A stretch of DNA of 64,000 nt from Clostridia bacterium (GCA_900767025.1 CAAFXS010000014.1:1238-65237), one strand, 5' to 3'; counted from the stretch's first letter, positions 28,295 through 33,586 are shown. The notes: generated by a model not told the origin, from the sequence alone. A program made the numbers and translations.

Positions 28295-28371
28295 GGCCCG
28301 GTAGTTCAGCTGGTTAGAACGCTAGCCTGTCACGCTAGAGGTCGACGGTTCGAGCCCGTTCCGGGTCGCCA
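28295..28371 (+). tRNA. tRNA-Asp (anticodon GTC)
   Basis: Acceptor GGCCCGG/CCGGGTC (one G.U pair); anticodon arm CTAGC-cTGTCac-GCTAG; T-arm GACGG-TTCGAGC-CCGTT; G-CCA. Confidence 0.85.
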
Positions 28372-28375
28372 CTTT

Positions 28376-28451
28376 GCTGATATGGCTCAGGTGGTAGAGC
28401 ACATCCTTGGTAAGGATGAGGTCACCGGTTCAAGTCCGGTTATCAGCTCCA
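28376..28451 (+). tRNA. tRNA-Thr (anticodon GGT)
   Basis: Acceptor GCTGATA/TATCAGC; anticodon arm CATCC-tTGGTaa-GGATG; T-arm ACCGG-TTCAAGT-CCGGT; T-CCA. Begins 4 nt after tRNA-Asp. Confidence 0.85.
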
Positions 28452-30215: not shown

Positions 30216-30253
30216 TGAAAGTATTATTGTTCTTTTTATAATAGAAACATAAT

Positions 30254-30287
30254 TCATCCCCCTCACTCTGATGAATGAGGGGGATAA
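30254..30287. terminator. Bidirectional terminator between the convergent transporter and lysin genes
   Basis: Perfect 10-bp stem ATCCCCCTCA / TGAGGGGGAT with a 10-nt loop and AT-rich flanks. Confidence 0.5.
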
Positions 30288-30288
30288 A

Positions 30289-31404
30289 TTATTTATTATA
30301 CCAAACGGCGCGTTTGTTGCCTTTGTAGTATACAGGAATGTAGCCTGAAGGGATTTCAAGCCAGATATTGCCTGCGGTGTCGGTTGACACGCTTAAAGCT
30401 GAAACAACCGTTCCGGGTGTCAGGATTGCATATGCATCAAGATTTTTGCTTGATGCATGGGCTCTGCCGTCGACGGTAAGGTCTTTGACTTTTTTAATTT
30501 TTGAGCTTGTTGTGGGCTTCGTCCACACATTGATATATGCCGTCAGCTTGTATTTACTGCCTGCATCGTATCTCACAACCTCAATGCCAAGCTTCTTTTG
30601 GTCCTTTGGTCGTAAGACGCCGTTGATATAATCACCGGTATACGGCTTTTCTCGGAGGGTCATTTTGTCGCCGTTGCCGGTGGCATTTTGGTCGTAATAT
30701 TTGAATTCGCCGTCCTTGTTTACCTCCGCAACAATGAAAATATGGCCGTACTTTCCCGATGTTCTTATGCCTATATCACCGGGCTTAAGCTCACCGTTTT
30801 TGTACTTTGGTGTAATCAATTCAAAATTGCTTTTAAGCCATTTATTAGGCTTGGTCCACCATTCCTTTGCGTTGCCCCAAAAGCCTTTTTCAATATCCAG
30901 CACCTTGTCTATAAACGCATCTATAAGGTCCACGCACTGCACGCCGTAGACACCGTCCCGGTCCGTTCGCTTACCTAAATACCTGCCTACAAATGCACTG
31001 AAGGTCATATTATCTCCGCCTTTCTGCTCTTTGTCATTAAAGAATTTATCCTTTATGTAGCTAATTGCAGTAGTAATGATAGGCGGAATATTTATGCCAA
31101 GAGCTCTTGCATTTTCAACGATTGAGGAAATCTCTATCAGGCAAAAGCAAACACAGCTGATTAAGCCGATGGGTGAAAATTCGATATCCGTTGAGCTGAG
31201 TATCAGTGTATCAAGCATCAGGCACATAAGAATCATTCCGAAATAGCCTACGAATTTAGGCACGGACATTCTTAATTTCGAGCTGCTGACACCCTCGACA
31301 AATATACCCTTGCAAAGTCCAAAGATAAAGTCGATAACGAACAGCACCAAAAAGATGATTATTGCTATTAAGCACTTTTTAAAATCTGTTATAAAATATT
31401 CCAT
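30289..31404 (-). CDS. Holin-endolysin in-frame fusion: N-terminal class-I (3-TM) phage holin, then CHAP-domain peptidoglycan hydrolase, then a C-terminal SH3b-like cell-wall-binding region
   Basis: Residues 1-~130 have three TM helices and ...SSK... / ...ENARALG... holin-like motifs. Residues ~133-371 contain CHAP Cys/His (YGVQCVDL ... KYGHIFIV). An internal AAAGGCGGAGA RBS and ATG lie at 31006-31008 in the same frame. Confidence 0.7.
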   Translation of the reverse strand: MEYFITDFKKCLIAIIIFLVLFVIDFIFGLCKGIFVEGVSSSKLRMSVPKFVGYFGMILMCLMLDTLILSSTDIEFSPIGLISCVCFCLIEISSIVENARALGINIPPIITTAISYIKDKFFNDKEQKGGDNMTFSAFVGRYLGKRTDRDGVYGVQCVDLIDAFIDKVLDIEKGFWGNAKEWWTKPNKWLKSNFELITPKYKNGELKPGDIGIRTSGKYGHIFIVAEVNKDGEFKYYDQNATGNGDKMTLREKPYTGDYINGVLRPKDQKKLGIEVVRYDAGSKYKLTAYINVWTKPTTSSKIKKVKDLTVDGRAHASSKNLDAYAILTPGTVVSALSVSTDTAGNIWLEIPSGYIPVYYKGNKRAVWYNK

Positions 31405-31405
31405 T

Positions 31406-33358
31406 TTATTCTCCTTTATTATAATTTCTGTAAGAAAGTCTTGCCGAAAAGCTTACAGTAGCAGTAACCGACTGCATTGCGTAAAGCTCAAACAAGCCGC
31501 CGTTTACTCCCGACGCACCGCCCATTCTTACAGCACATACATCCGTGTTATTACGAGGTTTGCTGAAATTATCACAAAGATAAAGCTTGCTGCTGCCGCC
31601 TGTTGAATCAGGCAGGGTAACACCGCTTTCATATTTTGCAGAGCTGATGAAGCCATTAGCTGACGGATAATCGAAAGATAGTTCGGTATAATTCGTTATG
31701 CTGTTTGAATAGGCATCAGGATTGCTTTCAAGATAATATTTTGAATTATGAAGCAGTATTCCGTCCAGCCAGGTATATCTTTCACCGTAAAGGTTTTCAA
31801 TACCTCTGTATTTTGACTGAGCGGTAACTCCGCCGTAAATAAGCTGTCCCGAAGATGAAGAGATTTGATTTGTCATACCGTTTCTTTTGGTGTTTAACTT
31901 TACACTGAAGGATGAATCAGTAATGATTTCTCCGCCGCTGATAAAGTAACGGTAATATCCTTTATCCATAAGCTCATCAATATCATTTATCAGTTCTATA
32001 CCGGTTACGGTTCTGACTGCCGTACCGTCGTAATCCAAAGGCTCCGGAGACAGATTTTCAGTTATCGGAAAAGCGATTTCCTGACCCACATCAAAAATAC
32101 TGTCAGAATTTGAAACAATGTAGCCGTAGGAAAGTGTATCGGTATTTTCCGTATCAAAAACAGCCCATTCATTAGGATAAAATGTATAAGACTGACTTTT
32201 CTGCTCGTTACCGTATAAAACAGACTGACTGTCAAGGGTTGCAAATTCCACAATAAACAGTGCTTTAATAACCTCATATTCCCAAACATCAAAGCAGTGC
32301 CAGTTTGCTCCCCTTGCAGTTGCAAAGGACCTTGCCTGCGAATAATTGTAATCACCGTAATAAACATTTCCGCTTTTGCTTTCGCCCTTGGTTTTTTCAG
32401 CATCACTGCTCATCATAAATGCAGAAACATAAATTTTGTCAAGCTCTTTGCCATCCTTGTCGATAAACGCTTTTGGAACCTCGTAATACTCGTTAAGCCT
32501 TTCACGGCTGATATACCAGTATTCCCTGCCCAAAGCCTCGTCAAGATAATGCATTAAATAGAACTTGGGGATTTCAACCATAACCTGACCTGCCGAGCCA
32601 TCCTCTGTATATTCGGGATCATCCTCATATGCGGTAACAGAGCCGTCATCTGCAAGAGTGCATTTTTTCATCTGTGACCATGGGTAAATGCGGTCAAAAT
32701 CATTTTGCTCCAGCTCCGTGCCGTTTGAGGCTTTTGCCTTGAGATACCTTGCGTCTGAAAGCCTTGTTAAAGTGGGGTTTTTGGTTTTAAGGTCATAGCA
32801 CACTCCGTATTTTGAGGGGTCAAAATAAAGGCTGTATACCTGTGACGCAATTTCCCTTCTGTCATCTGCGGTAACCACATAGTTGTCACCTTTATCGCCT
32901 TTTTCTCCCTTTTCACCCGGTTCGCCTTTGTCGCCCTTATCTCCCTTGTCACCCTTGAGCCTTCCGCTTTCAACAAGGTTGTTGATAAGGTTGTAATAGT
33001 TTTCAAGAACATCCGGCTGAGGTATCTCCGCCTCGCGGACAATATCACTGTATGAGCCTTTTCTGACGGAAATCATTGTAGGCTCCGGCGAAATTATTCT
33101 GGTATACCTATCTGCCTCAAGGCTATATCCGATAACACCGATAACACAGGTATCACTGTCAAAAGGCGGTGCAATACACTCACCGTTAACCAAAGGCACA
33201 CGCACTCCGTTAAACACCGCCTCTGTTGTTAAATCACCGTATTCCCCGCTGAGATTGAAAACGCATTTTATTTGGTTAATATTGCCCCGGGTTGCTTTTT
33301 CACTGTTATCAACAAGGCGTACACGGCTTTGGGTTACATCAAATTTATATAAAATCAT
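31406..33358 (-). CDS. Phage tail-fibre-like protein with a collagen-like Gly-X-Y repeat (likely trimeric receptor-binding protein)
   Basis: (GDK/GEK)x8 triple-helix segment LKGDKGDKGDKGEPGEKGEKGDKGDN between an N-terminal ~140-aa domain and a ~470-aa C-terminal beta-rich domain. AAGGAAAGG RBS. Its stop lies 1 nt before the holin-lysin start. Confidence 0.6.
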   Translation of the reverse strand: MILYKFDVTQSRVRLVDNSEKATRGNINQIKCVFNLSGEYGDLTTEAVFNGVRVPLVNGECIAPPFDSDTCVIGVIGYSLEADRYTRIISPEPTMISVRKGSYSDIVREAEIPQPDVLENYYNLINNLVESGRLKGDKGDKGDKGEPGEKGEKGDKGDNYVVTADDRREIASQVYSLYFDPSKYGVCYDLKTKNPTLTRLSDARYLKAKASNGTELEQNDFDRIYPWSQMKKCTLADDGSVTAYEDDPEYTEDGSAGQVMVEIPKFYLMHYLDEALGREYWYISRERLNEYYEVPKAFIDKDGKELDKIYVSAFMMSSDAEKTKGESKSGNVYYGDYNYSQARSFATARGANWHCFDVWEYEVIKALFIVEFATLDSQSVLYGNEQKSQSYTFYPNEWAVFDTENTDTLSYGYIVSNSDSIFDVGQEIAFPITENLSPEPLDYDGTAVRTVTGIELINDIDELMDKGYYRYFISGGEIITDSSFSVKLNTKRNGMTNQISSSSGQLIYGGVTAQSKYRGIENLYGERYTWLDGILLHNSKYYLESNPDAYSNSITNYTELSFDYPSANGFISSAKYESGVTLPDSTGGSSKLYLCDNFSKPRNNTDVCAVRMGGASGVNGGLFELYAMQSVTATVSFSARLSYRNYNKGE

Positions 33359-33487
33359 ATTTACATCCTTTCCTTATAACTGTCTTTGAAGAGCTGAGAC
33401 CCTCTTCATTTTCATATTATGAATTTAAACAGAATTGTGCAAGCTGAGGTACAGAGAAAGGGTCTTTATATATTGCCTGTATAGCCT

Positions 33488-33541
33488 AATTTATGCATAA
33501 ATTTATGTGTATATTTATTCAGTTTTATGTATATTTATAAC
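33488..33541 (+). promoter_or_regulatory. AT-rich tandem imperfect palindromes, candidate ArgR (ARG-box) operator of the arg operon
   Basis: TTTATGCATAAATTTATG ... TGTATATTTATTCAG ... TTTTATGTATATTTATAA: repeated TATG-n-ATAAAT-type half-sites immediately upstream of the -35 box. Confidence 0.35.
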
Positions 33542-33558
33542 TATTTTCTCAAATAGTA

Positions 33559-33586
33559 TTGACAATAATATTAGAATGTATATAAT
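33559..33586 (+). promoter_or_regulatory. Sigma-A promoter of argC
   Basis: TTGACA (33559-33564), 16 nt, TATAAT (33581-33586), 38 nt upstream of the argC ATG. Confidence 0.6.

Follow-up and report, generated by a model that had tools for sequence, protein, structure and literature searches.

How does a pair of phage-type genes come to stand alone among the housekeeping genes of a gut anaerobe, and could it still serve a function there? This question is raised by a stretch of DNA from a Clostridia bacterium (GCA_900767025.1 CAAFXS010000014.1:1238-65237), termed the window in the following and analysed at its full length of 64,000 nucleotides (nt), in which a gene for a collagen-repeat tail-fibre-like protein is followed by a gene for a holin-endolysin fusion protein. 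An earlier reading of the sequence, referred to here as the original prediction, had considered this two-gene module a prophage remnant, a moron or a domesticated unit such as a fibre-plus-lysin killing or autolysis cassette. The explanation that has the better part of our confidence is a recent replacement by phage DNA, in which the genes of an old and domesticated lysis cassette in the chromosome were exchanged for the module. The module is probably still able to lyse the cell, and the fibre gene is most likely a passenger brought in by recombination; as no virion genes for the fibre are encoded in the 64 kb, it most simply came as the neighbour of the lysin gene. Of the options considered originally, the domesticated locus is retained, the moron label does not fit, and the killing cassette finds no support. 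The two genes were taken from a listing of open reading frames (ORFs):

31406-33358, minus strand: fibre gene, intact ORF of 650 amino acids (aa)
30289-31404, minus strand: holin-CHAP-SH3b fusion gene, intact ORF of 371 aa

The ORF listing agrees with the predicted layout of two co-oriented, adjacent genes with a spacing of one nucleotide. The fibre gene ends with ...AAT AAA GGA GAA TAA, its stop codon TAA occupies 31408-31406, and the single base 31405 separates it from the ATG of the fusion gene at 31404, whose Shine-Dalgarno sequence AAAGGAG sits within the 3' end of the fibre gene. Both ORFs are full length in comparison with their homologues. As predicted, the module lies between a convergent gene for an MFS_2 (GPH-type) sugar transporter and the arg operon, which is composed of argC-argJ-argB-argD-argF-carAB. 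The neighbouring genes between positions 266 and 64000 encode proteins with housekeeping-type Pfam domains or without a match (e.g. RuvABC, ilv/leu enzymes, glycoside hydrolases, and FtsZ), along with tRNAs. The predicted isolation of the module is confirmed in the Pfam tables of the called genes in this range, which contain no integrase, capsid, terminase, or further tail genes; the module is thus not contiguous with integrase, capsid, terminase, or portal genes. A hidden prophage within the window was rejected because no other phage-specific gene appears in these tables, and the two genes are therefore not the end genes of a complete prophage in the window. The impression that the module is more AT-rich than its neighbours was mistaken, as the GC content is 0.423 for each of the two genes, 0.431 for the window, and 0.404-0.457 for neighbouring genes. 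The GC content at third codon positions (GC3), 0.484 and 0.407 for the module genes, is in the range of the neighbours (0.406-0.479) or just above, and a compositional anomaly of the module was rejected.

The origin of the module is revealed by close copies in other contexts. In L116, the fibre gene is 97% identical at the nucleotide level over window positions 33018-31238, and its start overlaps the stop codon of the preceding gene, which encodes a tail fibre with a C-terminal Peptidase_S74 intramolecular chaperone, a domain characteristic of tail fibres. Residues 131-650 of the fibre are 98% identical to L116 with a synonymous divergence (dS) of 0.04, whereas residues 1-130 are only ~65-70% identical with saturated dS; by this comparison, the N-terminal domain of the fibre is mosaic relative to L116. 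In L001, both genes are found with 95% nucleotide identity, and the terminator hairpin is shared as well. The two sequences part at 30256, 33 bases beyond the stop codon of the lysin gene, where L001 continues into unrelated non-coding DNA. The dS to the nearest copies is 0.04-0.085 for the fibre and 0.30 for the lysin, and the ratios of nonsynonymous to synonymous divergence (dN/dS) relative to phage-context copies are 0.24 and 0.11, respectively. The phage origin suspected originally is thus supported by the fibre gene behind an S74 tail-fibre gene in L116 and by the gene pair in L001, and these comparisons identify the module, as far as sequence can tell, as the 3' end of a phage late operon that was acquired recently. 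In L001, two copies of a ~60-nt repeat (GGAGCTGATAACCGGACT.ATCAATAACCAACCTGCTACGAAACAGTCC.CCGGACTGT) are located past the lysin terminator (L001:3050-3508). They may represent an att-like or other repeat element; a search for a tRNA or att signature beside the L001 copy found no tRNA.

Homologues of the fusion protein are found in several kinds of surroundings. A homologue with 76% identity is the last gene of the structural block in a phi29-like podophage (L002/L003), and another (64%, L143) ends a siphovirus-type prophage beside host genes. A solitary homologue (62%) is located among genes for LysR, Na/Ala-symporter, HTH, and PrsW proteins in five contigs (e.g. L145:10001-11095, L146:6963-8057, and L147:3351-4445); solitary chromosomal fusions are therefore not unique to the window. 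The small phi29-like contig (L002:126-8559, and L003) encodes Phi29_MCP, a connector, and a Caud_tail_N/phi29 gp9-like tail protein, starts with a SpoVG-family gene, and has the holin-CHAP fusion as its sole recognisable lysis gene. A 593-aa protein of the same phage was considered as a homologue of the fibre and rejected, as there is no similarity. The genes for more distant homologues of the fibre immediately precede the lysis genes in a sipho-type prophage or belong to a compact integrase/Xis element. The latter (L148:1325-8948) contains the closest non-orthologous fibre homologue (45%, 694 aa), followed by a Phage_tail_APC gene and ~4 kb away from integrase, Integrase_DNA-domain, and Tn916-Xis genes, a layout that resembles a compact or reduced element more than the usual organisation of a prophage.

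The search of phage databases proposed with the original prediction gave a divided answer. Both proteins have matches to PHROG families and viral folds, but curated phage genomes yielded remote relatives only. INPHARED contains remote matches with identities below 26% for the fusion protein (Staphylococcus lysins) and of 24-33% for the fibre. In scans of IMG/VR and JGI metagenomes, no relatives of the fusion protein were found, and the fibre obtained two 33% matches to residues 1-158, a few matches of 24-28% to its body, and otherwise matches in the collagen region. Since the curated collections hold remote relatives only, the source phages are not among them.

The chromosomal side of the history became apparent from the argC locus of related bacteria. 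For this purpose, 80 loci around ArgC relatives were taken from species-representative genomes. The bacterium of the window falls into a clade of metagenome-assembled genomes (MAGs) of the Eubacterium coprostanoligenes group, and the best ArgC identity among the representatives is 85%, so that the window's own species is not among them. In many species, homologues of the C-terminal two-thirds of the fusion protein are encoded on the strand opposite to argC, 0.6-0.8 kb upstream. The first gene divergent from argC is an XhlA-like gene in 25 of the 36 loci that have sufficient upstream sequence and an ArgC identity of at least 63%; none of the more distant loci (ArgC <63%) contains it. The XhlA-like protein has ~72-87 aa with one transmembrane helix and a coiled coil, and its match to Pfam XhlA (E 0.0025) is below the cut-off. 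In the 17 loci with an unambiguous ORF start, the XhlA-like gene starts 234-324 nt upstream of argC; the distance for the fibre gene in the window is 267 nt.

A holin gene follows in 20 of the 25 loci, of the Holin_SPP1 type (E 7e-25) in six and r1t-like in 14, and a lysin gene is present in 22, with a CHAP, C39-like cysteine peptidase, M23, or M15_3 catalytic domain. The SH3b-like C-terminal domain of the window's fusion protein often recurs in these lysins, among those with CHAP, C39-like, and M23 domains. In two of the loci the r1t-like holin is fused to the lysin (L014:240-1178 and L019:377-1315). L031 and L033 have the XhlA-like gene without holin or lysin, and L028 has a holin match without a lysin ORF. 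Representative cassettes of this XhlA-like/holin/endolysin type are the following:

L016:8576-9747, L013:8596-9735, L009:8418-9737, L042:8605-9732, and L018:8673-9755: XhlA-like/holin/endolysin cassette, found in 20 further loci

These cassettes are flanked by housekeeping genes, including those for an M28 peptidase with tRNAs, an M20 peptidase, Pol IV, glutamate dehydrogenase, EamA, and alpha-galactosidase. A small integrase element near the cassette was found only in L009 and L010, where genes for a tyrosine integrase and a protein with a PBECR3 nuclease domain lie between the tRNAs and the cassette (L009:5502-7951 and L010); this element is separate from the cassette. The window contains adjacent tRNA-Asp and tRNA-Thr genes at 28295-28451, at a distance of ~1.8 kb from the cassette. 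These tRNA genes directly adjoin the cassette in some relatives (e.g. L016 and L038), whereas the transporter gene intervenes in the window and in L013.

The pairwise identity of the XhlA-like proteins tracks ArgC identity (Mantel r 0.68; reached by 0 of 5000 permutations). Between species, dN/dS is 0.07-0.16 for the XhlA-like, holin, and lysin genes, with dS near saturation. XhlA-like homologues with 42-49% identity adjoin holin genes in Streptococcus and gut phages, from which it follows that the cassette is phage-derived but domesticated. By these measures, the cassette beside argC is old and under purifying selection, and its catalytic and holin modules are shuffled between species. The fibre gene is absent from every relative's argC locus when the window proteins are mapped onto the loci, and the gene pair is therefore not an old resident. 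A tblastn search of the window with the relatives' XhlA-like protein yielded a best E of 1.9, i.e. no such gene. The comparison of synteny thus gives a twofold result: the slot is old and has a lysis function in relatives, but the gene pair that now fills it is not, and full-length orthologs in all relatives, which would have indicated an old resident pair, are not present.

That the module occupies this slot precisely is evident from the surrounding regulatory DNA. In an alignment of the intergenic region, homology between the window and its relatives extends from argC as far as a leader hairpin, ~30 nt before the fibre ATG. The elements of the intergenic regions are these:

33414..33442, minus strand: putative sigma-A-type cassette promoter, with -35 TTGCAC at 33442-33437, a 17-nt spacer, and -10 TAATAT at 33419-33414
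33387..33408, minus strand: leader hairpin TGAAGAG-GGTCTCAG-CTCTTCA, between the promoter and the first gene
33373-33365, minus strand: ribosome-binding site (RBS) of the fibre gene, AGGAAAGGA
30249..30292, minus strand: intrinsic terminator hairpin with a 20-pair stem, directly after the lysin stop codon and facing the convergent transporter gene
33559-33586: argC sigma-70 promoter, a perfect TTGACA-16-TATAAT, within the stretch homologous to the relatives

The position and hexamers of the cassette promoter are conserved in relatives (TTGCAA/TTGACA and TAATAT/TAATCT). A consensus scan did not flag it because the -35 hexamer of the window matches only three of six positions. The leader hairpin folds at -9.0 kcal/mol with the loop GGUCUCAG in the window and is found at the same position in L009, L010, L013, L014, L016, L017, L019, L059, L025, and L027. 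Its loop GGUCUYAG is conserved and its stems covary, with GAAGAG/CUCUUC in the window, CAGAG/CUCUG in L009, L010, L013, and L017, UUGCAAA/UUUGCAA in L019, and GACAU/GUGUC in L025 and L027. The hairpin was also flagged as terminator-like on the plus strand in a terminator scan. Neither the leader nor the terminator belongs to an Rfam family; the sole match was a chance hit of MIR405 on the terminator (E 0.098). The argC promoter is preceded by tandem AT-rich repeats (both within 33494-33586), which were read by eye as ARG-box-like (TGTATATTTATTCA / TATGTATATTTATAA) and recur in every relative of the alignment. These repeats adjoin the argC promoter and lie more than 50 nt beyond the -35 hexamer of the cassette; the reading by eye, for which no matrix scan was made, gave no evidence for ArgR control of the cassette.

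At the transporter side, homology to L013 stops at 30229 and homology to L001 at 30256. As the core of the terminator hairpin is shared with the phage-context copy in L001, the terminator came with the phage DNA. These limits define an exchanged segment of ~3.1 kb from ~30256 to ~33375. They also bear on the trivial explanation that phage reads were wrongly joined to a chromosomal contig during metagenome assembly. A contig from such an assembly (L006) matches the window exactly, although look-ups of the two exact protein sequences found no entry, a quirk of the index. Several relatives' MAGs break just upstream of argC, so that the region is hard to assemble. In nine assemblies (L007, L008, L011, L015, L020, L022, L037, L039, and L045) the contig ends 20-370 nt upstream of argC, which points to repeated or strain-variable sequence near the cassette start that assemblers cannot cross; L037 is E. 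coprostanoligenes ATCC 51222. Yet a look-up of the exact ArgC protein retrieved the same neighbourhood on two contigs, and composition is uniform. Chromosomal homology reaches to within ~30 bases of the phage segment on each side, given by the two limits at 30229 and 30256 and by the chromosomal leader hairpin at 33387-33408, without a repeat long enough for a de Bruijn join. An assembly error is therefore hardly credible.

Whether the replacement could still work depends on the fusion protein, for which three domains were delineated:

31045..31404, minus strand: holin domain, aa 1-120, with three hydrophobic helices
30610..31008, minus strand: CHAP domain (peptidoglycan hydrolase), aa 133-265, following the conserved linker DKEQKGG
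30292..30582, minus strand: SH3b-like cell-wall-binding domain, aa 275-371; the match to PlyGRCS spans ~280 alignment columns

The prediction of a holin-endolysin gene is confirmed by two Pfam matches above their cut-offs. Phage_holin_4_1 (PF05105) matches residues 8-119 (E 1.5e-19, 70.6 bits versus a cut-off of 22.2, profile positions 7-116 of 116), and CHAP (PF05257) matches residues 151-240 (E 1.9e-11, 44.7 bits versus a cut-off of 26). Endolysin and holin families of PHROG both match the protein, and ~29 clusters of homologues (90% identity) bear both domains. Since holin and endolysin form one continuous reading frame, the former is a domain and not a stand-alone holin. Its helices were located at residues ~10-32, 50-72, and 76-98 by hydropathy and at 2-39, 48-72, and 74-101 in the AlphaFold2 (AF2) model. 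The first loop is positively charged, and an N-out/C-in topology is thus predicted. In the CHAP domain, C157, H221, D238, and N240 are invariant in alignments of 24 and 22 sequences, so that a CHAP-endolysin profile is accompanied by the catalytic Cys and His. In the AF2 model, the pLDDT of residues 133-371 is mostly 80-97, and matches in the PDB include PlyGRCS (CHAP and SH3b; E 2e-11), PlyPy, CHAP-K of LysK (TM-score 0.64, target-normalised), and LysGH15. The CHAP fold is hence combined with a C-terminal wall-binding domain, for which the SH3_3 Pfam signal in homologues is weak (E 0.006-0.018).

In the window allele, an internal ATG is located at Met132, with GGCGGAG five bases upstream, and an internal start producing a free lysin is plausible in this allele. 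An internal start as a conserved feature was rejected because the aligned codons are TTA, GTT, or CTT in L002, L143, and L145. The column of M132 (alignment A2) is always M, L, or V. This column after DKEQKGG resembles a fossil RBS with a start codon, yet TTA, CTT, and GTT are not start codons. DKEQKGG is thus a linker at the protein level, and from the codons of the three homologues it follows that the fusion family acts as a single polypeptide or is cleaved at the linker. The same CHAP lysin family has also been fused independently to r1t-like and Phage_holin_1 (PF04531) holins (P0141, P0150-P0156, P0168, and P0200).

These data lead to the following proposal. The ancestral state, still represented by 25 related species, would have consisted of argC, a divergent intergenic region with a promoter on the opposite strand and a leader hairpin, and the XhlA-like, holin, and endolysin genes. 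The end of a phage late operon, with the last tail-fibre gene, the holin-endolysin gene, and the terminator, would then have taken the place of ~3.1 kb of this slot, whereby the resident promoter and leader would have been kept and the XhlA-like gene and the separate holin lost. A bicistronic mRNA would start a few bases downstream of the -10 hexamer (33419-33414). The fusion protein would enter the membrane by its three helices with the N-terminus outside and the C-terminus inside, and upon triggering, the holin domains would make membrane lesions through which the tethered CHAP domain (Cys157/His221) could reach the wall, while the SH3b-like domain would bind to it. The producing cell would lyse or its wall would be opened locally, as presumably brought about by the ancestral cassette. 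The analysis demonstrates the layout of the module, its phage origin, the conservation of the slot, the retention of promoter and leader, and the integrity of the catalytic residues; expression, lytic activity, and any benefit to the host are inferred.

Several points weigh against this proposal. The window lacks the XhlA-like gene, which is the best conserved component of the resident cassette, its -35 hexamer for the cassette is weaker than those of relatives, and neither junction shows an evident recombination mechanism. The contigs of the closest species (L007, L008, and L011) break just upstream of argC. The predicted topology would place the CHAP domain in the cytoplasm at first, and the internal start that could release it is not conserved. 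The low dN/dS relative to L001 and L116 could stem solely from selection on the phage lineage, expression and activity are predictions from sequence, and a lysis cassette has no evident use for a fibre gene, the presence of which is as expected of an accidental remnant.

Some of these points would be explained directly if a phage had recombined or integrated beside the resident cassette and a subsequent deletion had left only its last two genes, intact merely because the event was recent and devoid of a role in the host. Copies with 95-97% identity in different, partly phage-like contexts and the small dS of the fibre to phage-context copies would fit such an inert prophage remnant. So would the loss of the XhlA-like gene and a fibre that is useless without a baseplate, none of which is encoded in the 64 kb; moreover, the species is on record with only two contigs, from which retention in a population would not be apparent. 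A remnant does not account well for the tidy end-points of the module, in which a complete first gene, including its RBS, follows on from the resident promoter and leader and the terminator is kept, nor for the integrity of all catalytic residues. Furthermore, the locus has been under long-term purifying selection for a lysis function in relatives, which would favour its replacement by a working lysin over its loss, and an orphan fusion of the same family has been kept among housekeeping genes elsewhere (the five contigs including L145-147). An inert remnant is therefore possible but rather doubtful, and the replacement of the cassette by a probably still functional lysin is preferred.

The fibre protein is the part of the module for which a function in the chromosome is least obvious. 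It is composed as follows:

32969..33358, minus strand: N-terminal domain, aa 1-130, the mosaic part, with low model confidence
32879..32959, minus strand: collagen-like G-X-Y repeats, aa 134-160, GDKGDKGDKGEPGEKGEKGDKGD, nine consecutive triplets in translation
31409..32821, minus strand: C-terminal receptor-binding region, aa 180-650, with a C-type-lectin/FGE-like fold according to Foldseek

The designation as a collagen-repeat tail-fibre-like gene holds, given the match to phrog_5302 ('tail protein', E 2e-55) in a PHROG search, the nine G-X-Y triplets, and viral fold matches. Many tail-fibre families of PHROG match solely in the collagen-like stretch, and the match to Pfam Collagen (PF01391; E 0.0035, 17.5 bits versus a cut-off of 27.2) is below the cut-off. 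The closest database relative (P0001, 91% aa identity), encoded on L116, likewise has 650 aa. The AF2 model, based on 23 homologues, has a pLDDT of 72.8 with confident residues 180-650. Its best PDB match with Foldseek is TaqVP (5vf4; E 1.6e-7, probability 1.0), the variable protein of a diversity-generating retroelement (DGR), and a comparison with BFVD retrieved dozens of 'tail collar fiber' proteins of gut phages (E 2e-37 to 1e-20), including crAss-like tail fibres. According to this model, the protein is a bona fide receptor-binding fibre of a phage with an N-terminal domain, a collagen-like stalk, and a lectin-fold head; residues 1-130 are interpreted from their position as the virion-attachment domain. 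Tail-fibre homology and fold are thus present, whereas baseplate or other tail genes do not accompany the gene in the window; such genes are found with the near-identical copy in L116 (the upstream S74 tail-fibre gene) and with the homologues in L005 and L148. The C-terminal region shares the C-type-lectin fold with DGR variable proteins (TaqVP and Mtd-type). Unlike for these proteins, there is no reverse transcriptase among the window's genes and no repeat of the fibre 3' end in the window, and near-identical copies differ by a few scattered substitutions, without adenine-directed hypervariation. An active DGR acting on the fibre was therefore rejected.

A fibre encoded next to a lysin invites the idea, already raised in the original prediction, of a minimal bacteriocin against neighbouring cells, in which the fibre would provide targeting and the CHAP-SH3b enzyme would lyse from outside. 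Endolysins with CHAP and SH3b domains, among them PlyGRCS and LysK, are able to lyse Gram-positive cells when acting from the outside, and the closest folds of the fusion protein are CHAP(+SH3b) endolysins of this type; in addition, the two genes are arranged for co-transcription. Such a killing device is nevertheless very improbable, as the lysin is anchored to a three-helix holin and neither secreted nor fused to the fibre, the window has no sheath, tube, or baseplate genes and no immunity gene, and the same gene order is ordinary in phages. The staphylococcal and streptococcal phage enzymes PlyGRCS, CHAP-K of LysK, and PlyPy share the CHAP Cys/His fold (E 2e-11 to 1e-6), with PlyGRCS adding SH3b, but have only 19-26% sequence identity to the fusion protein, and none of them has an N-terminal membrane domain.

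By descent and presumed mode of action, the module belongs with phage lysis cassettes of the XhlA-holin-endolysin type. Among known systems, the ancestral cassette beside argC recalls xhlA-xhlB-xlyA of PBSX (and SPbeta/phi105-type) in Bacillus subtilis, with which it shares the three-part layout of a small coiled-coil XhlA-like protein with one transmembrane helix, a holin, and a modular endolysin, kept in the chromosome. The PBSX cassette belongs to a prophage that is complete but defective and encodes its own regulator and sigma factor, whereas the cassette beside argC stands alone among housekeeping genes. The window further differs from PBSX by the loss of the XhlA-like gene and the separate holin, and the relatives' match to Pfam XhlA is weak. 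No XhlA-like gene comes first in the window, and holin and endolysin domains lie in one ORF under the cassette promoter, presumably co-transcribed with the fibre gene. Expression of the PBSX holin and endolysin leads to wall holes and membrane vesicles (PMC5589764), a plausible analogue of what the cassette beside argC may bring about. Host-retained phage lysis genes are also known to serve vesicle formation, toxin release, and secretion, as in E. coli DLP12, the C. difficile PaLoc with TcdE/TcdL, and the type 10 secretion system (T10SS) (PMC7918800, PMC12485765, PMC10847048, and PMC9527704). The cassette beside argC likewise consists of phage lysis genes outside a functional prophage. In contrast to those systems, which are tied to a defective prophage or a cargo locus, it is a cargo-free three-gene island at a fixed position in many species, and it differs from them further by module exchange with phages.

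These precedents suggest another possibility, i.e. that the module serves non-lytic, holin/endolysin-assisted export of the type-10-secretion-like or TcdE/TpeE type, with a cargo lacking a signal peptide, possibly the fibre protein itself. Phage_holin_4_1 is the Pfam family that we take to include TcdE, and TpeE is a holin with one transmembrane helix and an amphipathic helix. Prophage-derived holin/endolysin pairs do serve protein secretion, T10SS-dependent toxin release is documented (PMC10847048), and the fibre and fusion genes are adjacent for translation. Full-text searches yielded a single paper on a natural holin-endolysin fusion, and none of the matches listed dealt with the argC locus. 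The paper concerns Clostridium sporogenes, in which a holin of the TpeE family is joined at its C-terminus to an endolysin (Bruser and Mehner-Breitfeld 2022, PMC9527704). It discusses this fusion as an indication that the enzyme passes through the membrane without being detached from the holin, and the fusion was taken to back a 'C-terminal flipping' model of translocation (PMC9527704). The fusion protein in the window is likewise a holin-endolysin of a clostridial-type organism; it differs by a three-helix Phage_holin_4_1 domain in place of a TpeE holin and by its CHAP and SH3b enzyme, and its family is larger (~29 clusters at 90%) and distributed over phages and chromosomes. The fibre protein is the sole candidate for a cargo, and there is no toxin or enzyme cargo nearby. 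The relatives' cassettes hold XhlA-like, holin, and lysin genes only, without a cargo gene, and fibre and lysin arrived together from a phage late operon, in which their adjacency simply reflects gene order. Export is thus an improbable function of the module, and lysis by a replaced cassette remains the preferred interpretation. Compared with known lysis cassettes, the module is distinguished by a three-helix holin fused to CHAP-SH3b, by a fibre gene as the first cistron, and by its clade-wide slot.

A more far-reaching version of this interpretation can be formulated, which is bold and rather unlikely in its entirety. The site beside argC would be a vertically inherited programmed-lysis locus maintained by selection across a clade of gut Oscillospirales (the Eubacterium coprostanoligenes group), in which a promoter close to consensus and a leader hairpin with covarying stems precede XhlA-like, holin, and endolysin genes, and would serve as a landing pad for the continual exchange of modules with the phages of this clade. 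In the window, the resulting operon would co-express a free receptor-binding protein and a one-polypeptide holin-endolysin, and a lysing subpopulation would release the fibre, for example as a decoy on the phage receptors of kin cells, or together with vesicles or DNA.

If the module were merely a remnant, the finding would be an ordinary one. The fusion protein is of interest beyond the window, as it belongs to a sizeable natural family in which three holin families have been joined to the same CHAP-SH3b lysin; such fusions bear on how endolysins cross the membrane. The conservation of the locus points to a lysis cassette that was retained at one chromosomal site through speciation in a clade of gut anaerobes that is abundant but little studied. 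The window represents one recent swap of a phage module at this site and offers a concrete locus for asking if gut commensals use programmed lysis. A conserved lysis locus that exchanges modules with phages in gut Oscillospirales is the wider pattern most worth following.

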